Shown: piece by piece, positions 437 to 12,632 of the stretch | How positions within the stretch are numbered: position 1 is the first letter of the stretch | Layout: each line of letters begins with the position of its first letter | Virus record (IMG/VR): IMGVR_UViG_2703718818_000001 | Location: 1 to 18,526 of that record | Length of the DNA: 18,526 bases | Source of the DNA: a virus | Taxonomy: Duplodnaviria; Heunggongvirae; Uroviricota; Caudoviricetes | Direction: 5' to 3' (one strand) | Position numbers and translations under genes: made by a program | The notes under the pieces: generated by a model | Database searches by the model: none | Seen by the model: the letters and a program-made list of their open reading frames with translations, nothing else | What the model was told of the DNA's origin: nothing

Positions 437-650
437 TCCCGGTGAATTCTGCAATGACCAGACAGAATCCGCAACTTGCCTATACAATACGCAACCAAAC
501 ATCTGTCATTATGCCCCTCCGCTCAGGGGGATTCACCATGCCTGTTCCTTTTAACAAACGCCCCGCAAAACAGACAACTGTCAACCGTCTGAATTGTGAG
601 ACATTTAAAATTTTCGGGGCGTAACTGATACCCGGTTAATTCTGCAATAT
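437..650. repeat. Two direct copies of CCCGGT-N-AATTCTGCAAT (437-457 and 631-650) flanking a ~170-bp segment with internal inverted repeats
   Basis: AATTCTGCAAT is identical at 445-455 and 638-648, with CCCGGT upstream of both copies. Inside the flanked segment ACGCCCCG (548-555) pairs with CGGGGCGT (614-621). Confidence 0.4.
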
Positions 651-1708
651 CATCCGTTCTGACTGACTAAATCCTGAACTTCCCTGACAGTCTGCTCAAA
701 ACGTTCAGTCTCCAGCTCAACGCCAGTTGCACGACGTCCCAGCGCCATCGCTGCTTTGACTGTCGAACCCGACCCCATGAAGAAATCTGCAACCAGGTCA
801 CCCGGACGACTGCTCGCGCTGATTATCTGCTGCAGCATTTCTGCTGGTTTTTCGCACGGATGTTTCCCGGGATAGTACTGCACCGGTTTATGCGTCCACA
901 CATCGGTGTACGGCACCTGCGCCGTCACGCCAAAATACCGCCGCAGATACTTATATTCACTCTGCAGTTCCGCATACTGCCGGTTCAGTTCACTGTATGT
1001 GCTGACCAGTTGGTGATGTGGCTTTTCCAGTTCTCCGCGCTGATGCTTCTCTTCTGCCACCCGGGCAAACAGCGCCTGTAATTTCAGATAATCGCTTTCG
1101 TCCGGTAGCTGCCACTGGCTGGCACTGAACCAGTGCGACACCATGTTTTTCTTTCCTGTGGCATCAGCAATCTGTTTTGCCGTTATCCCCAGGGCAGCAC
1201 GCGCATCACGAAAGTAAGCAATCAGCGGAGCCATCACATGCTGTTTCAGTGCCCTGCCCTTCGCCTCATACCCGGCATCTTTCGGACGATACGGCCCCTG
1301 ATAATGTTCCGCGAACAGAATGCGCTCTGTGGCGGGGAAATACGCCCGCAGGCTTTCCTTGTTGCACCCGTTCCAGCGTCCGGACGGCTTTGCCCAGATG
1401 ATATGGTTCAGCACACTGAAGCGTTCACGCATCATGATTTCAATGTCAGACGCCAGGCGATGACCACAGAACAGGTAAAGACTTCCGGCAGGTTTCAGCA
1501 CCCGCCAGAACTGCGCAAGACACTGGTCCAGCCATTTCAGGTAATCCTCATCCCCCGTCCACTGGTTATCCCAGCCCTCGGGCTTCACTTTAAAGTATGG
1601 CGGGTCTGTGACTATCAGATCGACAGAGTTTTCCGGTAAGGTCTGGATAAATTCCAGGCAATCAGCGTTGATTAGCTCACAACTGGATATTTTTACAGTA
1701 TTAGCCAT
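650..1708 (-). CDS. DNA methyltransferase, beta-class amino-methyltransferase (N6-adenine or N4-cytosine); no restriction partner visible (orphan)
   Basis: 352-aa ORF. Motif IV DPPY (LIVTDPPYF) near the N-terminus and motif I FxGxG (DFFMGSGST) near the C-terminus, the circularly permuted order of beta-class MTases. ATG at 1708. Confidence 0.85.
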   Translation of the reverse strand: MANTVKISSCELINADCLEFIQTLPENSVDLIVTDPPYFKVKPEGWDNQWTGDEDYLKWLDQCLAQFWRVLKPAGSLYLFCGHRLASDIEIMMRERFSVLNHIIWAKPSGRWNGCNKESLRAYFPATERILFAEHYQGPYRPKDAGYEAKGRALKQHVMAPLIAYFRDARAALGITAKQIADATGKKNMVSHWFSASQWQLPDESDYLKLQALFARVAEEKHQRGELEKPHHQLVSTYSELNRQYAELQSEYKYLRRYFGVTAQVPYTDVWTHKPVQYYPGKHPCEKPAEMLQQIISASSRPGDLVADFFMGSGSTVKAAMALGRRATGVELETERFEQTVREVQDLVSQNG

Positions 1709-1740
1709 AGATCAATAAGCACTTCTCTGATAGGCTCATT

Positions 1741-1759
1741 CTGCTTTTGCGCAAAGCAG
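1741..1759. promoter_or_regulatory. Near-perfect 19-bp palindrome CTGCTTTTGCGCAAAGCAG, 33-51 nt upstream of the methyltransferase start; candidate operator
   Basis: The sequence is its own reverse complement except for one T/A offset. Regulatory role is inferred from its position. Confidence 0.3.
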
Positions 1760-1845
1760 TGGGCCTGAGGTTTGCTTGTGATCCGGACGCATGAGCAGAT
1801 GGCTGGTGAGTGCCCCTAACACCCACCAGCCGCCCATTTACCACA

Positions 1846-1872
1846 AATAAAAAAGCCTTCAGGACTGAAGGC
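1846..1872 (-). terminator. Strong intrinsic terminator on the minus strand, overlapping the stop codon of the small upstream ORF
   Basis: Minus strand reads GCCTTCA-GTCC-TGAAGGC (7-bp stem, 4-nt loop) then TTTTTTATTT. Plus-strand hairpin at 1855-1872, A run at 1846-1854. Confidence 0.6.
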
Positions 1873-2056
1873 GTCTGTAACAACCGAACTGATAGTCTGC
1901 CAGACCCGCCATAACAAGCTGGGTCAGTATTAACTGACAGCGTTCGCGTGAAAGGTACGTATTCTGCGCAATCTCCCCGACTGTCGCCGGTTCGGTGACG
2001 CTTAATTCATTAAACACCACTCTGGCGGTTTCGGTCATATCCTGCTGTTTCAGCAT
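1859..2056 (-). CDS. Small hypothetical protein (65 aa), possible winged-helix DNA-binding protein; first ORF after pR'/tR'
   Basis: The ORF track start at 2137 is a GTG. I prefer the in-frame ATG at 2056, which has AAGGGA about 8 nt upstream. Translation MLKQQDMTETARVVFNELSVTEPATVGEIAQNTYLSRERCQLILTQLVMAGLADYQ... DNA-binding fold is an impression only. Confidence 0.45.
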   Translation of the reverse strand: MLKQQDMTETARVVFNELSVTEPATVGEIAQNTYLSRERCQLILTQLVMAGLADYQFGCYRRLQS

Positions 2057-2178
2057 GTCTTTTTCCCTTTTCCGGTTAACGTGACACACCAATAACTCTT
2101 GTCGAAAAAGCCAGCAAGCTGAAAGACCGGTATTCACCGCCGCCAGCGCGTTTACTGTACTGGAGTGATTTCAGTCAT

Positions 2179-2201
2179 AAAAAAACCCGCCTGGCGACGG
2201 G
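2179..2201 (-). terminator. tR'-like intrinsic terminator about 60 nt downstream of the predicted pR' start
   Basis: Minus strand reads CCCGTC-GCCA-GGCGGG (6-bp stem with one G-U pair) followed by TTTTTTT. Plus-strand A run at 2179-2185. Confidence 0.55.
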
Positions 2202-2234
2202 TGTAAAAAGTCTTCTAACGTCAGGCATAAAACG

Positions 2235-2277
2235 CCCATCGTTAGGGCAAATTTACCACAGATTCCGGAAAAATCAA
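2235..2277 (-). promoter_or_regulatory. Late promoter pR' with a lambda-type promoter-proximal pause element (Q engagement region)
   Basis: Minus strand reads TTGATT-16 nt-TAAATT-TGCCCT-AACGATGGG. Lambda pR' is TTGACT-17-TAAATT-TGACTC-AACGATGGG, recalled from memory. It lies immediately downstream of the Q stop codon. Confidence 0.6.
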
Positions 2278-2282
2278 CCTTG

Positions 2283-3104
2283 TTACCTGGTTACCTTTTT
2301 TAACTGCCTCTCAGCCCATGCTTCCTCAATATCAAACTTGCTCACCAGCGCATCATAGAATTTCTTAACTGTTTTTTCCCATGACGCGCGTGTTATCTGG
2401 TTTGTCACCTCGCATATAGCATTAAATGCCTCTGTTGACGGCAATCTTTCATAGCCACGACCACCACAACGCTGGCAGTCCCTGATAACAGGCATACCCC
2501 GTTTTTCAGACTCTTCACGATGAATGGCAACACCGCGCCCACGACAATCTTTACAGGCGGTGGAAACCTCCCCCTTTCCGCCACACTCCGGACAGGCAAC
2601 TTTTACCACCTCCCTGACTTTTTTCCATTCCTCCCAGTAAGACGGATACACGCCTTTTGTGCACTTTGCCCACACTGGCGGCTTACCATCCGGATACTGG
2701 ATCTTGTTTGTAAAAACCTCGCTTTCAATAAATTTTTTTCCATGACAACAGGAGCACTGTTTTTTGCTCGCCGCGCTACGGGCATAATCTTCAAACGCAT
2801 ACGAAGCCATAATACGCATCACTGCCGGTTTTATTTCTGCCGGGAGTTTTCTTAACGCCGCCACGCAATCACACCGACTGAGTGCATATTCTGTCAGCAA
2901 TTCTGTTGCCCGTTCTCTGTCATTCATACTAATGCCCATTTTCCCAAGGAACGCAGAAAACCCCATCTCAGCCCGATTCTGTGTCATGCCCTGCGCGGCC
3001 ATCACATCAGTGATACTCAGCGCATCTTTCGACGTTGAGGCCGATGCATCAGTCAGGCCGGGGGATTTTGGGGAGTAGTATTTCGGTAAATCTTCCAGTT
3101 TCAT
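2283..3104 (-). CDS. Late-gene antitermination protein Q (phage-82-type Q family, with Cys-rich zinc-binding region)
   Basis: 273-aa ORF with Cys clusters (CPECGGKGE, CKDCRGRG, CQRCGGRG). Position directly upstream of the pR'-like promoter. ATG overlaps the RusA stop (ATGA). Confidence 0.8.
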   Translation of the reverse strand: MKLEDLPKYYSPKSPGLTDASASTSKDALSITDVMAAQGMTQNRAEMGFSAFLGKMGISMNDRERATELLTEYALSRCDCVAALRKLPAEIKPAVMRIMASYAFEDYARSAASKKQCSCCHGKKFIESEVFTNKIQYPDGKPPVWAKCTKGVYPSYWEEWKKVREVVKVACPECGGKGEVSTACKDCRGRGVAIHREESEKRGMPVIRDCQRCGGRGYERLPSTEAFNAICEVTNQITRASWEKTVKKFYDALVSKFDIEEAWAERQLKKVTR

Positions 3105-3481
3105 TTTTTGACCTGCCCTTCAAGCATTATGGGGTAAATCTTCACCCCCAGCCGTCCACCAGATACTGGCTTGCCACGTACAATATTGATTTCATCAAAC
3201 TGCTCGTCATCAATAAGCACTCCCGCATGCGTCAGCGCATCCAGCGGTGCTTTCAGAATATTGTCCAGGTCACGACGACGCTTATCCGGTGGCTCTGCAA
3301 TAATTTTTATTGCCAGCCGTCCGGACAGGCTTAATTTCAGCCGCTGCTGGCGAACAATAAGCGCCACTGCCCGGCGATAGCGCTTTCCCTCCTCCGATAT
3401 AAAATATGTGCTGCCACGGCGTCGCCAGTAAGTGTTCACCGTCGGCGGGTAAGGCAAAACAAATTCTATGCGCTCGGTCAT
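3101..3481 (-). CDS. rusA: Holliday-junction resolvase RusA (crossover junction endodeoxyribonuclease)
   Basis: 126 aa; conserved RusA core KRRRDLDNILKAPLDALTHAGVLIDDEQ and C-terminal GGRL motif. Start ATG directly follows the upstream stop (TAAATG). Confidence 0.9.
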   Translation of the reverse strand: MTERIEFVLPYPPTVNTYWRRRGSTYFISEEGKRYRRAVALIVRQQRLKLSLSGRLAIKIIAEPPDKRRRDLDNILKAPLDALTHAGVLIDDEQFDEINIVRGKPVSGGRLGVKIYPIMLEGQVKK

Positions 3482-4540
3482 TTATGCTTTCCACTTCAGA
3501 ACACCCGAATTTCTCGCGTGCATTAAAAAACGAATCAGCAACAACAGCTGACTGCCGTGTTTCTCTTCAAAATCTTTTACCCCGGCGTGTAGTTCGTTAT
3601 GGCATTTACGGCATAACGGAATAACAAACAAATCGTCAGCCTTTGTTCCCATACCTCCCAGTCCATGACCAATGATGTGATGCGGATCATCTGCCTGATT
3701 GCCACACGTCATGCATTTCTGCGTTTTTACCCAGCGCGTGTATACAGGCATCTCTTCCCGTTGTGGTTTCTGGCGCTGGAGGTACTGAGCCGGAGACTCC
3801 GGATCAACGGCGATGCTTACTAACGTCTTTTCCTGGGGGGGATTTTGTTGCTGGTGGACGTGAAGTGGCAGCGCAATATTTTTTGTGCGCTGCTTCAGTA
3901 TGCTGGTGGCGGCCTGCTCTCCCGGTATGATGTCGCTCTCACGGTATACGGAGCGGATTTTTTCCGCTGGTAATCCCAGCGAACGACGCACTACTGCCTC
4001 AGGTAGTGCATCCACCACCTGATTGCAGACCGCCCACCAGGATAATTCGGCCAGCGATAACTCCCTCTCCTGCGTACTGCTTATTGCGTGACGGATGACG
4101 TCAATCATCCAGGCAACCAGATTCTGCTGAGCAAGTTGATCGAGTGATTCTGATGTCTGGTCGCGCAGCTGGTTGTCACAGTGCCAGCACAACACCATCG
4201 CGCCGGTACCGTAACGGTGAATGACGGTTTCGCTGTGATGATAATCACCGTGTGGCCACTGGCAGGATTTCACGTGACGTAATAACCAGTCAGACAGTGC
4301 ACCTGCACCACCTGCTGCACGAATAACCCGCTCATCGCTGAAAAATGGCAGTAATGTTTTATCCTCTGCCAGCGGCTGGCGAACGGCAGGAACGACTCCG
4401 GACGGCAGACCGCGCATGTTTTTCGGTTCCGGTTCCACCAATATTCTGCCGTTATGGAATGCTGACATTGATTCACGGCCCGGCTTAAGGAGCACCATCC
4501 CGAGTTCCGGTACCAGAACAGGTCGAAGTAATACCCGCAC
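3482..4540 (-). CDS. DUF968-family protein (YdfU-like) with a C-terminal HNH-like metal-binding nuclease motif
   Basis: 352 aa. C-terminal CMTCGNQADDPHHIIGHG...CRKCHNELH is a CxxC...HH...CxxC...H arrangement typical of HNH. GTG start at 4540 with GGAGG 4 nt upstream, abutting the upstream stop. Confidence 0.7.
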   Translation of the reverse strand: MRVLLRPVLVPELGMVLLKPGRESMSAFHNGRILVEPEPKNMRGLPSGVVPAVRQPLAEDKTLLPFFSDERVIRAAGGAGALSDWLLRHVKSCQWPHGDYHHSETVIHRYGTGAMVLCWHCDNQLRDQTSESLDQLAQQNLVAWMIDVIRHAISSTQERELSLAELSWWAVCNQVVDALPEAVVRRSLGLPAEKIRSVYRESDIIPGEQAATSILKQRTKNIALPLHVHQQQNPPQEKTLVSIAVDPESPAQYLQRQKPQREEMPVYTRWVKTQKCMTCGNQADDPHHIIGHGLGGMGTKADDLFVIPLCRKCHNELHAGVKDFEEKHGSQLLLLIRFLMHARNSGVLKWKA

Positions 4541-4541
4541 G

Positions 4542-4820
4542 TTACCTCCAGATGCGCTGCTGGAATGTGCGGGACGGACGCGGTGGGCGTTCGGAATAAG
4601 GGAGCCTGACGGAGATTATCCAGTGACGACGATCGAAGCTGAGATCTTTCTGAAACTCGTAACCACGTCTGCGGTAGCACTGGATCAGCCATTCGGCCTG
4701 TTCTTCAGTGCATGGGTCATGCTGGAACCAGTCAGATTTGAATGCATGAGAACGCCGCCCGTGCCTGCTGGCAGGGGCGGTGGAGTTATCCGAATTGTGT
4801 AATTTGGTATCTTGCGCCAT
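4542..4820 (-). CDS. Hypothetical nin-region protein (92 aa)
   Basis: In-frame ATG at 4820 (the ORF track's longer start is a TTG at 4874). Stop lies 1 nt before the DUF968 start. No family recognised. Confidence 0.4.
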   Translation of the reverse strand: MAQDTKLHNSDNSTAPASRHGRRSHAFKSDWFQHDPCTEEQAEWLIQCYRRRGYEFQKDLSFDRRHWIISVRLPYSERPPRPSRTFQQRIWR

Positions 4821-4889
4821 CGGTTGTCTCTGCTGGCGCAGCAGGTGCCAGTTGTTCAGGCTGGCGTGCGGCAATATTGTCTCTGATTT

Positions 4890-4920
4890 CTGTTGTCGTC
4901 AACAGGCAGCGTGCTATCAT
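4890..4920 (+). promoter_or_regulatory. Candidate parDE promoter/operator: inverted repeat CTGTTG-tcgt-CAACAG overlapping a -35-like element, with TATCAT -10-like hexamer
   Basis: Inverted repeat at 4890-4905; TATCAT at 4915-4920; ParD ATG at 4956. Operator role is inferred from the autoregulation typical of RHH antitoxins. Confidence 0.35.
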
Positions 4921-4955
4921 CGAATAGTGTTCTATCCTACTCCGTGAGGTTTACC

Positions 4956-5213
4956 ATGCGTACAACCCAACAATTCAGCATTACATTAACTAACGAGATG
5001 GCTGACATGGTGCGCGCCCGTGTGGCTTCCGGCGCCTATGCTTCAGAAAGCGAGGTCATTCGTGAAGGGCTTCGCGCACTGAATGAGCGCGATAAAGCAA
5101 TCGAAGCGTGGTTAACGCATTCAGCCGCCCCCTCTCTTGATTCTATCCGCGAAAACCCAAACAACGGACGCTCCATTTCACAGGTTCGCGTCGCGATTCG
5201 ATCCGGGAAGTAA
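4956..5213 (+). CDS. parD: Type II antitoxin, ParD/CopG-like ribbon-helix-helix family
   Basis: 85 aa from the ATG at 4956 (GAGG 7 nt upstream); the ORF track start at 4893 is a longer in-frame extension. Translation MRTTQQFSITLTNEMADMVRARVASGAYASESEVIREGLRAL... Stop is 5 nt before the ParE ATG. Confidence 0.75.
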   Translation: MRTTQQFSITLTNEMADMVRARVASGAYASESEVIREGLRALNERDKAIEAWLTHSAAPSLDSIRENPNNGRSISQVRVAIRSGK

Positions 5214-5218
5214 TCTGC

Positions 5219-5518
5219 ATGACATATGAAGTCATCATTACTCCTGAGGCCGAACAACAAATAATCAACCTGCACAGATATATAACGGAGAAAGCAGGGA
5301 ACATCATTGCTGACAATTATGCCAATGCGCTTCTTGATTATCTTGATGGGTTTTCTACATTCCCGCATCGGGGCAATAAACGCGATGATATTCGCCAGGG
5401 GATGCGGGTAACTCATTTCCGCCACAGAACGATTATTGCTTTTGCCGTTGATGGCAGAAAAGTCTTTATTGTCGGTATCTATCATGGTGGGCAAAGTTAT
5501 GAAACCGATTTCTTATAA
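5219..5518 (+). CDS. parE: Type II toxin, ParE/RelE superfamily
   Basis: 99 aa, small basic protein with the ParE/RelE signature pattern (...RVTHFRHRTIIAFAVDGRKVFIVGIYHGGQSY). Tightly coupled downstream of the RHH antitoxin. Confidence 0.8.
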   Translation: MTYEVIITPEAEQQIINLHRYITEKAGNIIADNYANALLDYLDGFSTFPHRGNKRDDIRQGMRVTHFRHRTIIAFAVDGRKVFIVGIYHGGQSYETDFL

Positions 5519-5597
5519 ACTTTTACCCACATCATTCCGGTGTTAGAATAAACCGTCTGCCCCTCTCTTACTGCGGATTCGTAGGCTATATAAATCA

Positions 5598-5633
5598 AAG
5601 ATCCCGGCTCATGTTTGTGGCGGGATCTTTTTT
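5598..5633 (+). terminator. Hairpin with T run downstream of parE (AAGATCCCG / CGGGATCTT stem, 14-nt loop, TTTTTT)
   Basis: 9-bp inverted repeat at 5598-5606 and 5621-5629, then T run to 5633. The large loop lowers confidence. Confidence 0.4.
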
Positions 5634-5720
5634 CGGCGATTTATCCCCAGCGGCAAATCGAATACACCACCAGCGCCACCGCCATTGCAATACCAACATT
5701 TGAGAAGGCCTCAGGCCAGC

Positions 5721-6251
5721 TCATTGGCGCACCTCCTTCGGCGGTTCTGGTAGCGGCATCCAGTGTGATGGTATCCACGACGCACCAGGTACTACCCACC
5801 CATCATTAGCGTCAGGATGCCCCGGGATGTAAGTCGCCCATTTCATTCGCCAGTCACCTTTCCTGTCAAACTCCCTGGCAACAAGAACGGCTGTTTTGGT
5901 ATCCGGCATTCGCTCACTACAGCTTATCCAACCATCCGGAGTTACCGGCACTGGCTTGGCGGTATAAAGCGGTGTTATATCTGCCCGAAAATTACATGCT
6001 TTATGCAGCCGCACCCACCGTTCGACTTCTGCTTTGTCAGAATACATACCAGTGAACGTGTTATATTCACGGTCAATTTGCGTGAATGTTACCTTCCACG
6101 CCACCGGCTCTGCTTCCAGAGATGCCAGTGCGATACGCAGGGAAGCCAGGATATTCCCCTGGTAATCATCAAGCCCGAAAGGAAGCTCATCACGAACGCT
6201 TTCATAATCGTTGATAGCCTGCTGCAGCCATTCTCTTGTGATAGTGCTCAT
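5721..6251 (-). CDS. Phage protein with DUF551-like C-terminal region
   Basis: 176 aa; C-terminal WISCSERMPD...WIPSHWMPLPEPP resembles DUF551 as I recall it. ATG overlaps the upstream stop (ATGA), with AAGGAGAGG upstream. Confidence 0.6.
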   Translation of the reverse strand: MSTITREWLQQAINDYESVRDELPFGLDDYQGNILASLRIALASLEAEPVAWKVTFTQIDREYNTFTGMYSDKAEVERWVRLHKACNFRADITPLYTAKPVPVTPDGWISCSERMPDTKTAVLVAREFDRKGDWRMKWATYIPGHPDANDGWVVPGASWIPSHWMPLPEPPKEVRQ

Positions 6252-6925
6252 GATTCCTCTCCTTTACCGGCTGCGGCGGCGATACGAAAAAGTTTAATGT
6301 CGCCGCTGTCTGAGTTCTGCTTACTCCAGATAAGTGACGTTTCTCGCCCGCGCTCGTTGATATGCATGAGATTTCTTTCGTCTGTAAAGCATGCAGGGAT
6401 GAAAGCTACAGGGAGTGGATAGAGGGCAACTGCATCATCACCCCATTGCTCAACTGCATATTTCTCATCGGTTGTGAACCTCGACATGAATGATGTGACG
6501 TTAGCATTCCTCATCCATGCAACTGGCTTAACGTCCCGCGCCTGCAGCTCAGCAATCCGCTTCTCTGCTGCTTCCAGCTCAACACGCAGCTTCCCTACCG
6601 TTAGCGCAATATCCTCGTTCTCCTGGTCGCGGCGTTTGATGTATTGCTGGTTTCTTTCCCGTTCATCCAGCAGCGCCAGCACGGTAGCTGGATTGGCTGC
6701 GGCGATGAATTCAGCATTGGCCTGCTGTTCCATTTGGAAATCTTCATCGAAACCGCTTTCAGGATGCGCTCCTTCAATTCTGCAAATGGGAATATATCCA
6801 GCAACTTCACGATGAATTAGCGCATCATCACCATCAAATCGTCCCTCTCCATATTCGAGCGACCACTCGCCACACGTTGCTTTTTCTGCCTTAGCACGCA
6901 ATGCCTGATAGTCAATCTTGCTCAC
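6248..6925 (-). CDS. Ead/Ea22-like protein (paralog 1)
   Basis: 225 aa. GTG start at 6925 preceded by GGAGG-CAACCA. N-terminal IDYQALRAKAEKATCGEW and NAEFIAAANPATVLALLDERE motifs are shared with the adjacent paralog. Confidence 0.6.
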   Translation of the reverse strand: MSKIDYQALRAKAEKATCGEWSLEYGEGRFDGDDALIHREVAGYIPICRIEGAHPESGFDEDFQMEQQANAEFIAAANPATVLALLDERERNQQYIKRRDQENEDIALTVGKLRVELEAAEKRIAELQARDVKPVAWMRNANVTSFMSRFTTDEKYAVEQWGDDAVALYPLPVAFIPACFTDERNLMHINERGRETSLIWSKQNSDSGDIKLFRIAAAAGKGEES

Positions 6926-7485
6926 TGGTTGCCTCCTTTGCGAAGCTCAGCGGCGAAGGCTACTGCGTGATCATGATGTTCAAGTGTGTATGCACACTCC
7001 GCAAACATCTCCACGCCCTGCGCTCGTACTTCAGCCAGGAAAGCATCGGTGGCAGGCATATTTCCTGTTGCTTTCATGGCCTCCAAGATAACCAGAACGC
7101 CATCTCGCCCAACCTCCTCAGCGATAACCTCGGTGTTGTCGCCAACAACATCGCAGAATGCCTGAACTGCTTTACGAGCAAGTGCATTCTCCGCCGCCAG
7201 CGCCACAAGATTAGCTTCCAGCTCTGCAATACGTTTGCTTTGGGCTTCCCGTTCATCCAGCAGTGCCTGTACTACTTCAGGGTTGAAAGCTGCAATAAAT
7301 TCTGCGTTGTTCTCTGCATTTTTCTGGTCATCAAAGCCAGGCCATTTGATAATGTCTCCGCAACGTTCATCCCCCGGCGTATGCACCGCATATGTATCAG
7401 TGCCCGGCGAAATGAATGCGACCCATTCGCCCTGGGTTGCCAGTTTTGCTATCTCACGTAGCGTCTGATAATTAATTTTTCTCAC
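6922..7485 (-). CDS. Ead/Ea22-like protein (paralog 2)
   Basis: Preferred start is the GTG at 7485, with the same GGAGG-CAACCA-GTGAG context as paralog 1 (the ORF track's longest start is 7512). Shares INYQTLREIAKLATQGEW and NAEFIAAFNPEVVQALLDERE. Confidence 0.6.
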   Translation of the reverse strand: MRKINYQTLREIAKLATQGEWVAFISPGTDTYAVHTPGDERCGDIIKWPGFDDQKNAENNAEFIAAFNPEVVQALLDEREAQSKRIAELEANLVALAAENALARKAVQAFCDVVGDNTEVIAEEVGRDGVLVILEAMKATGNMPATDAFLAEVRAQGVEMFAECAYTLEHHDHAVAFAAELRKGGNQ

Positions 7486-7777
7486 TGGTTGCCTCCTGGA
7501 AAATAACCGCATGTCCCAGTTTCTCCGCCAGTGCCAGTTCTGCCTTAGCGCCTGCCGACCGCTGCCAGCCTTTCAGCATGTAAATCGCATCCACGCAGCG
7601 TATCATCGCCATGCAAATATCCATGTAGTGTGGCTGTGTCAGTCCGTCCGGAAGTACTGCCGGGTTTAAAACGGTATGCCCTTCCCGTTTCAGTGCTTCT
7701 TCCGCCCTGTGAAACGCCTCACGGTTGAAATTTTCATATCCCGTCATCGGACCGGCGATATAAATTCTCACCCTCAC
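7472..7777 (-). CDS. DUF4406-family protein (nucleoside 2-deoxyribosyltransferase-like fold)
   Basis: 101 aa; N-terminal RIYIAGPMTG motif typical of DUF4406. GTG start at 7777 with AGGAGGG 7 nt upstream, overlapping the upstream stop. Confidence 0.65.
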   Translation of the reverse strand: MRVRIYIAGPMTGYENFNREAFHRAEEALKREGHTVLNPAVLPDGLTQPHYMDICMAMIRCVDAIYMLKGWQRSAGAKAELALAEKLGHAVIFQEATSEKN

Positions 7778-8055
7778 GCCTGAACCCTCCTGTCGAAATA
7801 AACGTAGTTATTCACTGCGCCCAACTTCATCCCAAACTTTTCGGCAATTTCCCGTCGGGGTACGCCACGCTGATGCAGTTGCCGCGCCAGCTCAATATCA
7901 CGCTGTGAACATTTGGCTGACTGGTGATAATCACCCCGTAACATCATGCAGATACCCAGTTCCCGCGCTTTCGTCCTGACGGCAGCCCCACTACGGCCAA
8001 TCAGACTGCCGATGCTTTCGACTGTCATCGTTCCCGCACACTGCCGGAGTATCAT
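7774..8055 (-). CDS. Hypothetical small protein with possible HTH
   Basis: The ORF track extends to 8178, but that N-terminal extension overlaps the upstream gene and is low-complexity. The in-frame ATG at 8055 gives a 93-aa product MILRQCAGTMTVESIGSLIGRSGAAVRTKARELG... Start is ambiguous (8055, 8028 or 8178). Confidence 0.4.
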   Translation of the reverse strand: MILRQCAGTMTVESIGSLIGRSGAAVRTKARELGICMMLRGDYHQSAKCSQRDIELARQLHQRGVPRREIAEKFGMKLGAVNNYVYFDRRVQA

Positions 8056-8087
8056 AATTTCCGCCCAGCGCCACTTCTTCCAGCCAC

Positions 8088-8849
8088 TCACCGCAGCAGC
8101 TCTCTGGTGGCGGTAATATCCCGGAGAATATCCCTGTGTTTGTTCAGTTCCCGCAGCGCGGCACAGACTCGCTCCCACTTCTGAACATCACTTTTCGCCC
8201 TGCGCAGCGCCAGGTTTGCCCTGCACAGGGACAGAAAAATCAGCTCATCTGCTTGCGTTTCGGTAAACGATGGCAACGACTGCACAATGTCCGCCACTGT
8301 TTCTGTTTTAATATCTTCCTGTGTTGCAGATTCCTGTACTGGTAACGCAACACCTGCTGGCTGAGGAAAGGCCTTACCATCATTTTCCGTTACCGGCACG
8401 GCTTTCGGCTCTGCTGGTAAATTATCGCCCGGCATGCAGTAACGAAATTTACCGTTCTGATTTACGCGTGCCAGGCGTCCCGTTGCGGTTACCACCGCCA
8501 ACGTGGAAGCAACCTTGCGAATGCTAACACCGAACTTATCCGCCAGTTCCTCACACGTTTTAGCCCCCTCCTGACCGATAAACTCAATCATCATGTCTGC
8601 GGTAACTTTTTGTTCGACCTCCCCGGTCAGCACATCCGGTACTTCAGACTGTTCTGGCTGCTCTTCGGTTACCCCGGATTCACCTTCGCCAGCCAGAAAC
8701 CAGATGTGACCCGCTTTATCAACAACGCCATTTCTTTTGAGTTCCCACAGTTCGTTGAGAACCTCTTCACGACTGATATCAAGCCGCTCAGCCAGTCCAA
8801 CAGAGCTGGCTTTTCCCATTGCTTTCAGTGCGTCAAAAACGGTTTCCAT
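8088..8849 (-). CDS. Hypothetical phage protein with N-terminal winged-helix-like domain (recalled as DUF1627-like)
   Basis: 253 aa. ATG at 8849 with AGGAGG 8 nt upstream. N-terminal [45 protein letters not shown]. Family name not verified. Confidence 0.55.
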
Positions 8850-8882
8850 TAAAATTTCCTCCTACAAAATCGCTTCTCAGAT

Positions 8883-9545
8883 TCAAATAAAACCAGCTGC
8901 CTTCCGGCGTTCGTATTCCTGTTTCAGCCATTCAATTGGCGTTGGCCCTTTCGGGTGTTTCGCCCCTTCCAGTTGTCGTCGCACTGGCGGAACACTCATC
9001 CCGTTACCAACATGCTTTGCCCATTTCGTCAGTTGCCGTTCCGCAAGTCGTTTTAACTCACCCTGCGTCATCTGGCGCTCAATCCCTCTGGTACGCATTT
9101 CGAGGCAGATGTGGTACAGCACAGGCTGTGGCCACGGGTATTTATCACTCCCGTCGTATCGCCAGGATTCATTGCGCCAGCGCCGGTACTCTTCCATCAC
9201 GGCATCCACCGTAAGACCAAATGGATTTGCCCCACTCTCCGAAATCAGTGCAACAAACTCAGCCAGGTCCGGGGGCCACGTTTCACCCGCCCGGCAGCGG
9301 TCCATGCACTGACGGCAGACCAGCCGGATTTGCTGTTCAGTCATCGCGCCAATCTGGGCAATCCAGAGCTTCGAAGGTGCGGCCCCGTTCTTCTGTGTCC
9401 AGCGGTTCGAATACACCTCCCCCATAAGCTCCCACAGCTTCCAGGCCGTTTCCGTTGCTGATAAATCCGTTTTCACGTTCCCACTGTTCGCGTGCTGCCC
9501 GGATTTCCTGAACTGCCCGTGATGCCGTGCCACCTGATGCTGCAT
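8883..9545 (-). CDS. Replication protein P-like (DnaB helicase loader)
   Basis: 220 aa. The C-terminal two-thirds align by eye with lambda P (GLTVDAVMEEYRRWRNESWRYDGSDKYPWPQPVLYHICLE versus lambda GLPNVSELVDMVYEYCRKRGLYPDAESYPWKSNAHYWLVTNL). ATG at 9545 has AAGGGGG 6 nt upstream. An alternative ATG at 9344 would cut the overlap with the O-like gene to 8 nt. Confidence 0.7.
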   Translation of the reverse strand: MQHQVARHHGQFRKSGQHANSGNVKTDLSATETAWKLWELMGEVYSNRWTQKNGAAPSKLWIAQIGAMTEQQIRLVCRQCMDRCRAGETWPPDLAEFVALISESGANPFGLTVDAVMEEYRRWRNESWRYDGSDKYPWPQPVLYHICLEMRTRGIERQMTQGELKRLAERQLTKWAKHVGNGMSVPPVRRQLEGAKHPKGPTPIEWLKQEYERRKAAGFI

Positions 9546-10347
9546 GGCTTACCCCCTTGCTGACTGGTTTTACCTGTGCCCTGACGTGCTGCACGTGGCG
9601 GGCAAATTTCTGCTCCCACTGAATCTGCGTGAAAACCTTCCCCTCCGCCATCCAGTAATCCCGGAATGCGGCAAGCTCTGCAGGTGTAAATTCCGGCTCA
9701 GGCAGAGCCATACCCCACACTGCTGCCCGTTGTCGAAAATCCGGCGACGGCTGCCAGACAGTGGTCATCGAAAATTTCCCGATCGGTTCGCTCAGGCCGT
9801 CCAGGTATTCAGGTTCGGCTGTCTGCAACGGCGCACCATGCGACTCACTGGTCGGAATACTCTCGCGTTCACGCACGTTATGTGTGGGGTTTAATTCTTT
9901 TAGATCTGTATCTTTATTAGTTGCTTTTGTGTTTGCGTCATGTTCAAACACAACACCAACATTTGTTTGAACACCTGTTAAATCTCTCTCTTGTTTTGTT
10001 TGAACATATACTTCCTTTCTGCTTCTTCTGGCCTGAACAGATGCTTTTCCGGCGGCTGATTTTTTGGTCAATTTTTCCCTGACTGATGCCAGATCTTCCT
10101 CAATCCGAAGATGCACCCATTCATCGCCGTTATCGCAAAAAAACTCCCGCAAGGATGGTTCCACATCAGCCCATCGCTCGTTAGTCAGACGGGAAATTTT
10201 TGCCAGCCTGTTTTTAGGTATTGGTTTCCCTGTTTGCCAGTAATTGAACATCAGCAACAAATACGCACCGTGCTCCTCTGCGGACAAATGCATGGTGTCA
10301 GCCAGGTAATCAGCTATGTACAGTTGCATGTATGGTAATGCGGCCAT
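9337..10347 (-). CDS. Replication initiation protein, O-like / DUF1376 (YdaU-like)
   Basis: Preferred ATG at 10347 with GAGG 5 nt upstream (ORF track start at 10401 is a TTG). N-terminal MAALPYMQLYIADYLADTMHLSAEEHGAYLLLMFNYWQTGKPIP is typical of DUF1376. The 3' end runs 209 nt out of frame over the P-like ORF. Confidence 0.65.
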   Translation of the reverse strand: MAALPYMQLYIADYLADTMHLSAEEHGAYLLLMFNYWQTGKPIPKNRLAKISRLTNERWADVEPSLREFFCDNGDEWVHLRIEEDLASVREKLTKKSAAGKASVQARRSRKEVYVQTKQERDLTGVQTNVGVVFEHDANTKATNKDTDLKELNPTHNVRERESIPTSESHGAPLQTAEPEYLDGLSEPIGKFSMTTVWQPSPDFRQRAAVWGMALPEPEFTPAELAAFRDYWMAEGKVFTQIQWEQKFARHVQHVRAQVKPVSKGVSHAASGGTASRAVQEIRAAREQWERENGFISNGNGLEAVGAYGGGVFEPLDTEERGRTFEALDCPDWRDD

Positions 10348-10433: not shown

Positions 10434-10871
10434 TCAATGCACCACAACAGACTCGCCGGATGACCCGCCGTCGCTGAAATACGCTTTCCGGTAAACGGCC
10501 TGGACAGCATCATCATGTGCATCAATTGCCGTGCTCAACGCTTCCTGCGCCGCCAGTAATGCACGGCGCTCAACAGTGTCAAAAATACTGAGGTGATAAC
10601 GCAGTTCACGCGGAAGAACAGTCAGGATAGCCGGAATTAGTGCCTGAATTTTTTCAACAGCATCAGGCGTATCCTTTTCAAGCCAGCGAAAAATATTTTG
10701 TATATTCAATCCAATACCCTCTGTCGTAGAGGTGTCATGCATTGGTGGATAAGTCATTTCAAGCTCAAAATATGCTGTCGCTATATCATCAGCGATTTTT
10801 TTGCGCCCTACCCTCGGATAAAGCAGCCACGCATTCATCGCCATGCGGATGTGCTCATGCTTGATTTTCAT
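10434..10871 (-). CDS. YdaT-like protein (cII-position regulator of Rac-type immunity regions)
   Basis: 145 aa beginning MKIKHEHI, which I recall as typical of YdaT. ATG overlaps the stop of the cro-like gene (ATGA). Confidence 0.65.
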   Translation of the reverse strand: MKIKHEHIRMAMNAWLLYPRVGRKKIADDIATAYFELEMTYPPMHDTSTTEGIGLNIQNIFRWLEKDTPDAVEKIQALIPAILTVLPRELRYHLSIFDTVERRALLAAQEALSTAIDAHDDAVQAVYRKAYFSDGGSSGESVVVH

Positions 10872-11128
10872 GAATCAACTCCCGCCGCTGCTTGTGCGTT
10901 AGCCTGATACTCAACAGGTAAACCATCGGTTGGATTAGGGTATTTATCAGGGCGCAATTCATGCGGAGTTACTCCCCAGTCAAGCGCCTCACATGCTGGT
11001 ATAACCTCCTCCGCTGGCACTCGTTTTTTAAACCACCCACTTATGGTTTGCGGTGTTTTACCAAGACGACGCCCTAATTCTGATTGGCTCATTATTGACA
11101 GGATTTTCACTTGAGTACTTTTTTGCAT
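10868..11128 (-). CDS. Cro/YdaS-like HTH regulator
   Basis: 86 aa with HTH segment SQSELGRRLGKTPQTISGW. ATG at 11128 with GGAGGG 4 nt upstream. Divergent from the repressor gene. Confidence 0.7.
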   Translation of the reverse strand: MQKSTQVKILSIMSQSELGRRLGKTPQTISGWFKKRVPAEEVIPACEALDWGVTPHELRPDKYPNPTDGLPVEYQANAQAAAGVDS

Positions 11129-11254
11129 GTTTCCCTCCGAACTTTACGATGACACCGATGATTACAAATTTAATTTTAAATTTCAACTTCTATTTGTAAT
11201 GCCACTTATCAATTTTTTCTGTAGGATCGCGGAACTAGTTTACGAGGGGTGGTG
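11129..11254. promoter_or_regulatory. Immunity-region divergent promoter/operator region (OR-like)
   Basis: 126-bp AT-rich intergenic region between divergent HTH genes. Inverted half-sites TTACAAAT (11162-11169) and ATTTGTAA (11192-11199); imperfect palindrome AAATTTAA-TT-TTAAATTT (11166-11183). Confidence 0.55.
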
Positions 11255-11647
11255 ATGATCTTTGTAAAACGCCTTCAGCAGGTGTTGCAGGAATTGAATA
11301 TAAACCAGTCAGAGCTGGGAAGACGTCTTGGTGTAAAACCCCAATCCGTGCAAGGTTGGTTGAAAGGCGTGATGCCAAGAATGGATAAACTGGAAAAATT
11401 AGCAGAGCTCTCACAACATCCCGTCCATTGGTTCTTTATGGAAGAAGAAACTCTCGGCGATAAAATGGCTGTATCCAGTAATGACAACCAACCGCAACTT
11501 ACAGAACAACAACGAAAAATCATATCGCTTTTAGATGAGTTACCTCAAAGCGACGCAGAGCAGATCATTCGTGATATGGAGCAAAAACGCGATTTCTATA
11601 AACGGAAACTTGAAGAGTTACTGCGGCAGAAAAACAAAACTGCCTGA
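11255..11647 (+). CDS. CI/RacR-like prophage repressor: HTH protein with no peptidase (S24) domain
   Basis: 130 aa from the ATG at 11255 (GAGGGG 5 nt upstream). HTH segment NQSELGRRLGVKPQSVQGW closely matches the cro-like protein's HTH. C-terminal half is charged and coiled-coil-like, with no Ser-Lys protease motifs. Confidence 0.7.
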   Translation: MIFVKRLQQVLQELNINQSELGRRLGVKPQSVQGWLKGVMPRMDKLEKLAELSQHPVHWFFMEEETLGDKMAVSSNDNQPQLTEQQRKIISLLDELPQSDAEQIIRDMEQKRDFYKRKLEELLRQKNKTA

Positions 11648-11693: not shown

Positions 11694-12053
11694 TTATAAT
11701 CCAACCAGGCTTTCCAGGGGGATACCAAATTGATTATGAAGACGGCGAATCATTGGTAACGTAAGGCTTCTGGTACCATTCAACACCTCATAAACCCGAT
11801 TTTTTTTCCCAATTGCGGGTTCCAAATCTTTCACAGTCAGCCCCTGCTGTTCCATGCGAAATCTTATAGCTTCAATTGGGGATGGTGGCTCAATGGGATA
11901 ATGTTTTTTTTCATATTCCTCTATTAGCAAACACATCACCTCAAAAAAATCCCCCTCAGGCGTGTCAATTTCGGGCTCATTGTCGAACATGGGTTCAACA
12001 GCACGCAACGCGGCTTCATAATCTTGCTCTGTACGAATAGGTTTGATGTTCAT
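11694..12053 (-). CDS. higA: HigA-like antitoxin (C-terminal XRE-type HTH)
   Basis: 119 aa. C-terminal GLTVKDLEPAIGKKNRVYEVLNGTRSLTLPMIRRLHNQFGIP is an XRE-type HTH. ATG lies 2 nt after the stop of the upstream toxin gene, giving the toxin-first order typical of HigBA. Confidence 0.75.
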   Translation of the reverse strand: MNIKPIRTEQDYEAALRAVEPMFDNEPEIDTPEGDFFEVMCLLIEEYEKKHYPIEPPSPIEAIRFRMEQQGLTVKDLEPAIGKKNRVYEVLNGTRSLTLPMIRRLHNQFGIPLESLVGL

Positions 12054-12055
12054 GC

Positions 12056-12358
12056 TTACTCCAGTTCGATGGTATCAGCATCAATAGCATCGTATTCCTT
12101 GTGGTTTCCGATGAATTTAACAAATACCCATCCTCGCTGATACGCAATTGCAACAATTAAACGGTAATGATTACCTTTTATGTTGAATACCACGCGCCGG
12201 TTTTTCAATATACTGGCCGTTCGGTATTGTGCCTTAATGTCTGCTGGGCTTTTCCAGTCAGCTTTTGCCGCCTCATCCACCCATGCCCTTAGCGGTTGTT
12301 CTGCATCAGGATTCTCCGCCCAAAAATCCCTGAGTGTTTTAACTGAGATAATCTTCAT
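12056..12358 (-). CDS. higB: HigB-like toxin (RelE/ParE superfamily mRNA interferase)
   Basis: 100 aa from the ATG at 12358. C-terminal ...NIKGNHYRLIVAIAYQRGWVFVKFIGNHKEYD matches the HigB pattern as I recall it. The ORF track's 240-aa version (to 12778) is an upstream open-frame extension. Confidence 0.75.
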   Translation of the reverse strand: MKIISVKTLRDFWAENPDAEQPLRAWVDEAAKADWKSPADIKAQYRTASILKNRRVVFNIKGNHYRLIVAIAYQRGWVFVKFIGNHKEYDAIDADTIELE

Positions 12359-12369
12359 AACTGTATAGT

Positions 12370-12386
12370 AGTCCCATTTTGGGACT
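12370..12386. promoter_or_regulatory. Perfect inverted repeat AGTCCCA-TTT-TGGGACT, 12-28 nt upstream of the higB start; candidate HigA operator
   Basis: 7-bp arms at 12370-12376 and 12380-12386. Confidence 0.4.
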
Positions 12387-12401
12387 GATGCAACAGCTCG
12401 C

Positions 12402-12456
12402 AATTGCAAATTTAATAATAAACATGTTGACCAGTTAAATTTTAATTTGTAAATTG
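12402..12456 (+). promoter_or_regulatory. pL-like early-left promoter (TTGACC-17 nt-TAAATT) flanked by operator-like repeats related to those in the cI/cro region
   Basis: -35 at 12427-12432, -10 at 12450-12455. AATTGCAAATTTAAT (12402-12416) differs by one base from ATTACAAATTTAAT in the OR-like region, and ATTTGTAA recurs at 12445-12452. Confidence 0.5.
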
Positions 12457-12632
12457 TATCCATAAACCCACCCCGCCCCACAGAACGCAGGGCAATACTT
12501 CGAGTTACCCGGCAGTGGTCAGGGGTTAAGTAGCCAGCCTGAGGCGTATGAACATGACGGCGGGGATTACGTTTAACTATGCAGCAGGTTTTTTGTTCCG
12601 CTACCCCGGCGTTAAGGGGAAATGAGGTCAAC

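Follow-up and report, generated by a model that had tools for sequence, protein, structure and literature searches.

The archetype of the ParD-ParE toxin-antitoxin (TA) systems is the parDE locus of plasmid RK2/RP4, in which, as outlined in PMC3001019, the ParE toxin inhibits DNA gyrase and the ParD antitoxin autoregulates the operon. ParE-family systems have also been described that act in the maintenance or regulation of prophages: ParESO-CopASO (7ETR) in the Shewanella element CP4So (PMC8706911) and PfiT-PfiA, also denoted PfiAT (9W3A), in the Pseudomonas phage Pf4 (PMC13048266). The latter two systems provide a precedent for the stabilization function that we propose below for a two-gene cassette from a lambdoid prophage.

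Analysis of an 18,526-nucleotide stretch of DNA from a tailed phage (positions 1 to 18,526 of the IMG/VR record IMGVR_UViG_2703718818_000001; hereafter, the window) points to a moron of about 770 bp that comprises an intact, autonomous type II ParD-ParE TA operon in the nin region of a lambdoid Escherichia coli prophage, a reading to which we assign a probability of about 0.85. The cassette spans positions from about 4871 to 5639 on the plus strand and includes a promoter/operator region, parD, parE, a 3' spacer and a terminator hairpin. The borders come from comparison with hokD-type prophages, in which homology to the window ends at 4865-4870 and restarts at 5640; these limits are close to the extent of 4890-5633 proposed in an earlier note that was made from the sequence alone. 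As that note described, both open reading frames (ORFs) are on the plus strand and all annotated flanking genes are on the minus strand, which is borne out by the annotation of a 99%-identical RefSeq locus (L001) and by Pfam: on one side, the neighbors are the Q antiterminator, RusA, DUF968 and a 92-aa hypothetical protein, and on the other side, DUF551, ead/Ea22, and replication P and O-like genes. The 85-aa ORF (MRTTQQFSITL...) is followed exactly 5 nt later by the 99-aa ORF, again as claimed; indeed, the observation was confirmed in all details, and its interpretation is supported with respect to family membership.

The layout of the cassette is that of a type II TA operon, with small, co-oriented genes, the antitoxin gene first, a promoter of its own and conserved pairing. 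The features of a moron are present as well: the cassette brings along a promoter and a terminator, occupies a conserved site in some but not all related prophages and recurs in other contexts, and “moron” is also the PHROG category of the cassette proteins. Elsewhere in the window, a second TA-like pair, detected with Pfam, adjoins the repressor gene.

The antitoxin gene, parD (4956..5213, plus strand), is preceded by a GAGG Shine-Dalgarno sequence at 4946-4949. The protein starts with MRTTQQ in all homologues; the mechanical ORF list extends the frame to a TTG at 4893. The 85-aa product scores above the curated cut-offs of PF03693 (ParD_antitoxin; 32.2 bits vs 21) and TIGR02606 (53.1 vs 46.2), matches phrog_6494 (E = 5e-56) and, in sequence and profile searches of the PDB, retrieves ParD chains only. 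In the AlphaFold (AF2) model (pLDDT 90.5), an extended N-terminus is followed by helices at residues 13-24, 31-66 and 74-84, and the modeled ribbon-helix-helix (RHH) domain overlays the ParD chains 8c24, 7b22 and 7r5a at rmsd of 1.0-1.6 Å. In the model, then, an RHH DNA-binding domain makes up the N-terminal part of ParD, and the predicted toxin-binding helices make up the C-terminal part. The DNA-binding N-terminus is nearly invariant across homologues. Both the profile matches and the modeled fold agree with the RHH-like reading of this ORF in the earlier note.

The downstream gene, parE (5219..5518, plus strand), encodes a 99-aa toxin that we assign, on the strength of profile and fold comparisons, to the ParE subgroup of the RelE/ParE superfamily. 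The protein passes the curated cut-off of PF05016 (ParE_toxin; 40.7 bits vs 23) across model positions 1-89 of 89 and matches phrog_5232 (E = 4e-43); an NCBIfam search with the toxin matched no model. The AF2 model (pLDDT 83) has a beta-alpha-alpha-beta-beta-beta topology (E4-7, H9-26, H28-46, E61-67, E71-78 and E81-89), with a long alpha-hairpin, a three-stranded antiparallel sheet and no RelE-type C-terminal helix. Confidence is low for residues 50-56 and toward the end of the protein, where the last ten-residue block averages 53 and residues 97-99 have pLDDT < 50; the C-terminus matters for ParE toxicity. The ParE/RelE-like character attributed to this ORF from sequence is therefore upheld by PF05016 and by the ParE fold of the model, with profile searches identifying both partners as anticipated.

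Upstream of parD, a promoter scan detected a TTGTCG hexamer (4893-4898) separated by a 16-nt spacer from a TATCAT hexamer (4915-4920), which is preceded by TG (4912-4913), that is, an extended -10 element TGcTATCAT (4912..4920, plus strand). The scan on its own is not significant, with 3 promoter-like sites compared to 2.1 expected, but the promoter is credible because it is conserved across species. TGCTA and the last T of the -10 hexamer are invariant in 7 aligned enteric cassettes, and the upstream 68 nt are 68-78% identical among enteric cassettes vs 36-49% at the third codon positions of the neighboring parD. The palindrome CTGTTG-TCGT-CAACAG at 4890..4905 (plus strand; arms 4890-4895 and 4900-4905), which overlaps the -35-like TTGTCG, was found as claimed in the earlier note, together with the promoter-like hexamers. 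This palindrome, too, is not significant alone, given five 6-7-nt inverted repeats within the same 200 nt; its core, TGTCGTCAA, is invariant in the 7 enteric cassettes, its outer arms are not kept (5/6 in ArgO145, 4/6 in Salmonella and 2/6 in Yersinia), and its distance to the -10 element differs by 4-5 nt among homologues. The proposal that it is the operator has to be revised: the palindrome is kept in the enteric clade only, whereas a family-wide palindrome is located 20 nt further downstream. We consider the 4890-4905 palindrome to be a candidate secondary operator or promoter element.

The downstream site, ATAGTGT-TCT-ATCCTAC (4924..4940, plus strand), is a degenerate copy of the family-wide palindrome GTAGGAT-N3-ATCCTAC and, judging from sequence comparison, most likely is the ParD operator. 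It is the sole match in the window at ≤3 mismatches, with a degenerate left arm (4/7 positions match), and is located downstream of the promoter and ahead of the ribosome-binding site, over the transcription start, which is predicted near 4927. Perfect copies of the palindrome occur in 6 distant loci and, when ≤3 mismatches are allowed, 18 of 20 loci carry the site 14-24 nt ahead of the parD start, with no such site in any control window of those loci. In the distant homologues, as read from the sequences, the left arm TAGGAT is located 17 nt downstream of a TTGACA-like hexamer, which is the classic operator-over-promoter layout. The operator sequence has no match in the literature searched. 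A minus-strand promoter (TTGACG-18-AATATT, 4902 to 4873) located on the conserved TCGTCAA block was not adopted: it would face a co-oriented upstream gene in Yersinia, and its -10 element is not conserved in Salmonella or Enterobacter.

At the other end of the cassette, between the convergent parE and the minus-strand phage genes, lies the hairpin with a T run that the earlier note described, AAAGATCCCG ... CGGGATCTTT followed by T6 (5597..5633, plus strand; stem 5597-5606/5621-5630, T-run 5628-5633). This terminator-like structure has a folding energy of -21.5 kcal/mol (z = -3.55) on the plus strand and of -17.9 kcal/mol (z = -4.4) on the minus strand. Owing to its 14-nt loop, the hairpin escaped a simple terminator scan; the weak terminator that the scan placed inside parE (5440-5459) was discounted. 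The hairpin is kept in ArgO145, with changes in the loop only, and is missing in prophages without the cassette, where homology begins past its end, at 5640. A promoter-like site (5522-5549) is located between the parE stop codon and the hairpin. A search of positions 4500-6000 against Rfam gave no match at E ≤ 1 and hence no support for a known sRNA in this spacer.

In related lambdoid prophages, the insertion slot is located directly upstream of a conserved block that consists of the 92-aa hypothetical gene, DUF968, RusA and Q. In place of parDE, the slot carries hokD in related prophages, including prophages of O157:H7, and relBE-hokD in K-12 Qin. The earlier note suggested looking for homologous prophages without the 4.89-5.64 kb segment, and the hokD-type prophages are such relatives, with homology broken at the borders given above. 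In a search with the concatenated flanks, the flanks abutted directly in none of the matches listed, and in all listed matches to both flanks, either hokD or parDE was found between them. Because a cleanly delimited cassette swaps with hokD and relBE-hokD at one position, the slot behaves as a TA hot spot. The segment 4873-5724 is 96.3% identical to a part of phage ArgO145 with a different genomic context, near int; the recurrence of these ~850 bp in another phage context, along with the other TA genes in the slot of related prophages, confirms the view of a self-contained cassette. Relatives of parDE were also detected in a Yersinia prophage, within a tail-gene cluster marked by tape-measure and Phage_tube domains, and in a Salmonella prophage, where they adjoin Q. 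In three lambdoid contexts, namely, the window, ArgO145 and the Salmonella locus L013, the cassette is antisense to its neighbors. The whole cassette is present in 324 of the 5426 complete E. coli genomes (~6%). Relatives of ParE are encoded on 200 plasmids, all with less than 60% identity except for one 1.4-Mb E. coli record (98% identical), and only three of these plasmid records come from Escherichia. A close relation to the IncI/IncF plasmid ParDE (Kamruzzaman and Iredell, PMC6614396) hence appears unlikely, as judged from the plasmid matches rather than from direct comparison.

The two genes also travel together: parD is directly upstream of the parE relative in 21 loci with a readable upstream region (17 identified by script and four, L010, L012, L014 and L022, by gene calls; L031 was left out of this count). 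The gap between the genes, 5 nt here, ranges from -4 to +24 nt where the homologous parD is intact. In L029, parD is truncated and located 95 nt from the parE match, and no parD was found at the parE relatives in L026 or L030. Both genes are under purifying selection, with dN/dS of about 0.1 each (0.085 for parD and 0.104 for parE), which shows that the toxin protein is functional, without indicating the activity itself.

Extrapolating from the known ParDE systems of RK2, Caulobacter (ParDE1) and Vibrio (ParDE2), we propose the following mode of action. ParD dimers would bind the 4924-4940 site, and perhaps also the 4890-4905 palindrome, via the N-terminal RHH domain, and would thereby repress the promoter. 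As a result, a repressed prophage would express the operon only weakly, in antisense orientation to the early-right operon, which is silent in this state. The toxin would be neutralized by ParD through C-terminal helices that wrap around it. Once the cassette is lost or ParD synthesis is halted, the protease-labile ParD would decay, and free ParE would poison DNA gyrase, so that double-strand breaks would arise, the SOS response would be induced and growth would stop. The outcome would be addiction, with a price to pay for any cell that loses the prophage or the phage genome after its excision. Inhibition of DNA gyrase and cessation of growth are expected of this toxin from its family membership, as is its neutralization by ParD; a part of the cassette in prophage stabilization or phage defense is likewise an inference. 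The presence of ParE relatives on 200 plasmids is consistent with a stabilization role. The benefit of addiction is debatable, because chromosomally integrated prophages are rarely lost, and the ParE-family toxins PrpT and PfiT have been assigned functions beyond simple gyrase poisoning.

Several alternatives have to be considered. PF05016 and the RefSeq name “RelE/ParE family toxin” span both subgroups, and no ParE-specific NCBIfam model matches, so that the toxin might be a RelE-like, ribosome-dependent mRNA endonuclease and the cassette might arrest translation; the structural comparisons make this most improbable. A single-sequence PDB search with the toxin produced one weak match (6x0a, E = 0.008), and a 91-sequence toxin profile matched ten ParE-family chains, one of them deposited as RelE/StbE family (the matches include 6x0a, 8c24, 5ceg, 7ycs, 3kxe, 6xrw, 5cw7 and 7r5a, all ParE-type), but no characterized RelE, YoeB, HigB or YafQ nuclease at E < 0.001. 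The Foldseek matches of the model include RelE, YoeB, YafQ and HigB chains only from rank 23 downward, the top 22 being all ParE-type; TM-scores are 0.59-0.73 for the ParE chains, at 14-24% sequence identity to the solved toxins, vs 0.39-0.52 for the RNases. The long ParE-type alpha-hairpin, the lack of the C-terminal helix and the partner, which is a ParD (TIGR02606, Caulobacter CC2985 type) rather than RelB, argue in the same direction. Alternatively, the cassette could be a selfish, decaying passenger with an inactive toxin, in which ParD is kept only as a regulator or anti-toxin. Many PA2-type Stx2a phages have kept parD and lost parE, and databases contain variants of the toxin that are truncated or frameshifted (P0012, P0029-P0034). 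Decay is nevertheless very unlikely for the cassette in the window, where the two full-length ORFs are identical to widespread RefSeq proteins (WP_001260978.1 and WP_000220597.1), the estimated dN/dS is low for both genes, the promoter and the operator site are conserved, and the whole cassette persists in the 324 complete genomes.

The role of an intact operon can be viewed differently, too. Arguably, a prophage moron slot with expression independent of the lytic genes (as gleaned from annotation and the promoter scan), the second TA-like pair beside the repressor gene, and the statements in parts of the general literature that TA systems often turn out to be defense systems, would all fit a cassette devoted mainly to anti-phage defense or superinfection exclusion, via abortive infection triggered by an incoming phage, rather than to addiction. 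We regard such a principal role as unlikely: neither protein matches any of the 5027 PADLOC models at E ≤ 0.1, no paper on ParDE-mediated phage defense was found in the literature searched, and the ParE family of the cassette is common on plasmids, where stabilization is the classical function. The phage-defense role raised in the earlier note hence found no support, and an extra abortive-infection or defense role, on top of addiction, is possible but unsupported. An improbable further scenario links the cassette to the lambdoid switch as an amplifier of damage or induction. The cassette is convergent with the early-right (pR) operon, with no parDE-oriented gene between them; upon induction, antiterminated transcription from pR would traverse parDE in the antisense direction, cut off ParD synthesis and free ParE, and the DNA breaks made by ParE would reinforce RecA activation and commitment to lysis. 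If this were true, Stx-carrying relatives would also be committed to toxin release. The antisense placement in the three lambdoid contexts fits this scenario, and ordinary moron architecture fits equally well.

Public databases already label the pair as a ParD/ParE TA system (RefSeq through PGAP, PHROGs and at least one phage GenBank record), so that the cassette is ordinary, and finding it carries little weight alone. The literature searched contains no experimental paper on the cassette and nothing on ArgO145 in connection with TA, on WP_001260978.1 or on WP_000220597.1; the Stx-phage papers found mention only unrelated TA genes or an orphan ParD. Modestly useful is the TA hot-spot slot in lambdoid prophages, including Shiga-toxin phages. 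The comparison across Enterobacterales, Burkholderiales and Desulfovibrio yields a candidate ParD operator that is directly testable. The antitoxin-only Stx2a phages raise the question of antitoxin cross-talk among co-resident prophages of enterohaemorrhagic E. coli (EHEC): the orphan parD could be a trans-acting anti-addiction or anti-exclusion factor against the ParE of a co-resident prophage. More speculatively, if freed ParE triggers the SOS response, both the induction of prophages and the release of Shiga toxin could be affected by it.

Among the known systems, the best sequence-profile and fold matches to the cassette are the chromosomal ParDE complexes of Mesorhizobium opportunistum (5CEG, 6X0A), Caulobacter crescentus (ParDE1, 3KXE), Mycobacterium tuberculosis (ParDE1, 8C24), Pseudomonas aeruginosa (6XRW) and Vibrio cholerae (ParDE2, 7R5A). 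The cassette shares with them the antitoxin-first two-gene operon, the antitoxin with an N-terminal RHH domain and a C-terminal toxin-binding region, and the beta-alpha-alpha-beta3 toxin; the connection to Caulobacter is underscored by the passing score of the antitoxin against TIGR02606, a model named after CC2985. Unlike these systems, from which the toxin differs by its low identity of only 14-24%, the cassette resides in a lambdoid prophage and is surrounded by convergent phage genes. With the RK2/RP4 parDE, it shares the family names, the gene order and the inferred autoregulation and addiction logic, a likeness of organization rather than of compared sequences, but it is prophage-borne instead of plasmid-borne. 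The PaaR2-PaaA2-ParE2 system of E. coli O157:H7 prophages (5CW7, 5CZE) similarly places a ParE-family toxin in an E. coli prophage, and ParE2 matches the toxin profile (E = 3.3e-6) and is also a Foldseek match, at 17-19% identity. That system, which Hallez et al. 2010 are said to have described as three-component, combines a separate regulator with a small antitoxin devoid of a DNA-binding domain, in contrast to the two genes and the classical RHH ParD of the cassette. ParESO-CopASO and PfiT-PfiA, the toxin chains of which are among the profile or fold matches, resemble the cassette in pairing a ParE-superfamily toxin with a DNA-binding antitoxin within a prophage, but differ in the phage type (a P4-like element and a filamentous phage, respectively) and in the antitoxin family, and are distant in sequence. 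Finally, the relBE-hokD of K-12 Qin and the hokD of O157:H7 occupy the same slot as parDE but belong to unrelated TA families (type I Hok and RelBE) and are encoded on the strand of the nin genes, whereas parDE is on the opposite strand.

Two adjacent plus-strand ORFs, of 85 and 99 amino acids and separated by 5 nt, had been reported in the earlier note, and both are real: parD (MRTTQQFSITL..., 4956-5213) and parE (5219-5518). The product of parD begins with MRTTQQ in every homologue, for which reason the TTG at 4893, given as the start of this gene in the mechanical ORF list, was rejected; a GAGG Shine-Dalgarno sequence is located at 4946-4949 (+). Both genes are subject to purifying selection (dN/dS of 0.085 for parD and 0.104 for parE, against one Salmonella homologue). 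Positions 637-9917 of the window share 99% identity with an Stx2b prophage carried by E. coli 2012EL-2448 (L001), where RefSeq labels the two proteins ParD family antitoxin (WP_001260978.1) and RelE/ParE family toxin (WP_000220597.1); in PHROGs, both fall in the category "moron" (phrog_6494 "antitoxin", 5e-56, and phrog_5232 "toxin", 4e-43, respectively). According to the L001 annotation and Pfam, the minus-strand genes for the Q antiterminator, RusA, a DUF968 protein and a 92-aa hypothetical protein flank the pair on one side, and DUF551, ead/Ea22, DUF1627 and the replication P and O-like genes on the other side; these neighbours place the cassette within the nin region and its genes antisense to the early-right operon, as originally proposed.

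The predicted family membership held up in HMM searches, with all matches above the cut-offs. The antitoxin matched PF03693 (ParD_antitoxin; 32.2 bits, cut-off 21) and TIGR02606 (53.1 bits, cut-off 46.2), and its PDB matches, obtained with the single sequence and with a 61-sequence profile, were ParD antitoxins only (3kxe, 7ycv, 7b22, 6x0a, 5ceg, 8c24), covering residues 1-51, the ribbon-helix-helix (RHH) domain. In the AlphaFold model (pLDDT 90.5), three helices (13-24, 31-66 and, at the C-terminus, 74-84) follow an extended N-terminus, and the RHH domain overlays solved ParD chains with an rmsd of 1.0-1.6 A. The toxin matched PF05016 over the full model length (40.7 bits, cut-off 23) and none of the NCBIfam models; an exhaustive HMM search recovered 2359 cluster representatives at E <= 1e-3. 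A 91-sequence toxin profile matched only ParE-type chains in the PDB (6x0a at 2e-12, then 8c24, 5ceg, 7ycs, 3kxe, 6xrw, 5cw7 and 7r5a) and none of the characterised RelE, YoeB, HigB or YafQ nucleases. The toxin model (pLDDT 83, pTM 0.75) has the topology beta(4-7), alpha(9-26), alpha(28-46), beta(61-67), beta(71-78), beta(81-89), with the C-terminal helix absent, and in the Foldseek search ranks 1-22 were ParE-type chains (TM 0.59-0.73), followed by RNase-type relatives (TM 0.39-0.52). Given the profile matches, the predicted topology and the Foldseek order, we assign the toxin to the ParE subgroup.

The cassette is self-contained, as had been suggested, in that it has borders of its own and recurs elsewhere. 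Homology to lambdoid prophages lacking the segment stops at 4865-4870 and restarts at 5640, so that the cassette spans approximately 4871-5639, the downstream hairpin included. In prophages of O157:H7 and other strains, the equivalent slot is occupied by hokD, a type I toxin gene (L006 3216-3371, L008 4062-4217), and in the K-12 Qin prophage by rem-hokD-relE-relB (L007 4113-5334); no empty site with abutting flanks was present among the matches listed. The slot thus behaves as a toxin-antitoxin (TA) hot spot, and the cassette as a mobile unit within it. At least 80% of the cassette length is carried by 324 of the 5426 complete E. coli genomes. The Stx phage ArgO145 (genus Oslovirus) contains a copy (96.3% identity to 4873-5724) near int, antisense to its neighbours, with an anti-repressor gene on one side and other early-left genes on the other. 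More distant pairs lie beside Q in a Salmonella lambdoid prophage, where they are convergent too, within a cluster of tail genes of a Yersinia prophage (Phage_tube and tape-measure domains), and in an Enterobacter island that also contains int and IS66; others come from Desulfovibrio, Paraburkholderia and further genera, and from 200 plasmids. In the Yersinia mollaretii prophage (L009 4395-5848), a further short gene of the ParD family and one with a YafO_toxin domain follow the parDE homologue, so that a TA cluster lies between the tail tube and tape-measure genes.

Upstream of parD, the promoter scan found TTGTCG, 16 nt, TATCAT, with TG just before TATCAT; the palindrome CTGTTG-TCGT-CAACAG noted earlier at the -35 position is present at 4890-4905 (+) and overlaps the TTGTCG hexamer. 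Neither motif is significant alone: the scan returned 3 promoter-like sites where 2.1 would be expected, and the same 200 nt contain several inverted repeats of 6 nt. Their validation comes from comparative evidence rather than from single-sequence scans. Across seven aligned enteric cassettes (the window, ArgO145, VT2phi_272, Yersinia, two Salmonella and Enterobacter), the putative extended -10 element TGcTAnnnT and TGTCGTCAA are invariant, as is most of the sequence separating the -10 from the start codon. Identity across the 68 nt that precede parD is 68-78%, compared to 36-49% at third codon positions of the adjacent gene, and hence the leader is constrained. The 4890-4905 palindrome is only partly retained: its arms match at 5/6 positions in ArgO145, 4/6 in Salmonella and Enterobacter and 2/6 in Yersinia, and its spacing to the -10 varies by 4-5 nt between homologues. 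A different palindrome, GTAGGAT-N3-ATCCTAC, is located approximately 20 nt before parD in more distant homologues, with perfect copies in Paraburkholderia, Pantoea and Winslowiella and near-perfect ones in Polynucleobacter, Scandinavium, Buttiauxella and Desulfovibrio; in these homologues, a TTGACA-like hexamer precedes the left arm TAGGAT by 17 nt, and the palindrome therefore overlaps the -10. The only match in the window at no more than 3 mismatches is a degenerate copy, ATAGTGT-TCT-ATCCTAC (4924-4940, +), between the -10 and the Shine-Dalgarno sequence. In 18 of 20 loci, a site within the same threshold precedes the parD start by 14-24 nt, whereas none of the control 80-nt windows of those loci reaches that score; the loci are partly dependent (for example, four are from Paraburkholderia, and the window, ArgO145, VT2phi_272 and L016 are closely related). 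We take 4924-4940 to be the primary candidate ParD operator, whereas 4890-4905 may be a second site specific to the enteric clade. In keeping with a conserved operator, the N-terminal DNA-binding part of ParD is almost invariant across the compared loci.

The terminator-like hairpin with a T run, also noted previously, is present downstream of parE (stems 5597-5606 and 5621-5630, T6 at 5628-5633, +; -21.5 kcal/mol, z = -3.55; opposite strand, -17.9 kcal/mol, z = -4.4), and the non-homologous downstream regions read in Enterobacter and Salmonella each contain such a hairpin as well. Between the parE stop and the hairpin, there is a promoter-like TTTACC-16-TAGAAT with an upstream TG (5522-5549, +), conserved in ArgO145, from which a transcript of about 80 nt ending at 5633 could originate; the region has no match in Rfam. 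A 27-aa hydrophobic ORF, MSWPEAFSNVGIAMAVALVVYSICRWG (5641-5724, -), without a match in the PHROG search, overlaps the DUF551 stop with its ATG (ATGA). About a thousand E. coli genomes without the parDE cassette match this stretch, which places the ORF in the phage backbone, outside the cassette.

In the PA2-type Stx2a phages VT2phi_272 (L004 2918-3978) and phi349 (L005), the promoter and an intact 85-aa parD are retained (86% nucleotide identity), an arrangement found in 45 phage records in all. Cassette homology ends 14 nt into parE, followed by a lipoprotein-like ORF and a HigA-like HTH gene. This parD is the "orphan ParD" that, along with a HigA antitoxin gene, was remarked upon without explanation in two PA2-type phages (PMC12502783).

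Elsewhere in the window, a second TA-like pair (11694-12778, -) adjoins a cI-like repressor gene (11249-11647, +): ORF 12056-12778 contains a C-terminal HigB_toxin domain (PF09907, 110.9 bits) and is followed by a HigA-like HTH_3 protein (11694-12053). L001 encodes RelB/RelE beside its repressor in the equivalent place, and therefore the immunity region may be a second TA slot. At 10434-11128 (-), a YdaS-like HTH protein (PF15943) and a YdaT-like protein (PF06254), both named toxins by Pfam, occupy the Cro and CII positions, the usual place of lambdoid regulators. In L001 (7273-8938), the stx2b A/B genes and three tRNA genes separate the DNA methyltransferase from the downstream region; the window lacks these genes at the corresponding place (599-637), and no tRNA was detected in it by ARAGORN. 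Rfam matches above the gathering score are STnc100 (362-570, -, 168 bits), DicF (13038-13089, +, 61 bits), isrK (13337-13413, +, 65 bits) and C4 antisense RNA (13438-13525, +, 78 bits).

Comparative analysis thus shows an intact, selected ParD-ParE pair with a conserved predicted promoter and operator-like site, apparently transcribed independently. The ParD/ParE identification is correct but ordinary: the family, the architecture and the exact proteins are already catalogued in RefSeq, PHROGs and the ArgO145 GenBank annotation, although the literature searched included no experimental paper on this cassette. The increments beyond annotation are the cassette borders together with the exchange for hokD or relBE-hokD at a single slot, the orphan parD of the PA2-type phages, and the family-wide operator-like palindrome, of which the literature searched contained no mention.

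A role of the cassette in phage defence is conceivable but unsupported, neither protein being matched by PADLOC and no report of ParDE-mediated defence being found in the literature searched. The likely selective effect, by analogy, is addiction or stabilisation of the prophage or of the excised phage genome. From what is established for the ParDE systems of RK2, Caulobacter (ParDE1) and Vibrio (ParDE2), ParD dimers would repress the promoter via the RHH domain, and the ParD C-terminus would neutralise ParE by wrapping around it; upon loss of the cassette or arrest of ParD synthesis, ParD would decay and ParE would poison gyrase, leading to DNA breaks, SOS induction and growth arrest. A precedent for such stabilisation is ParESO-CopASO in CP4So (PMC8706911).
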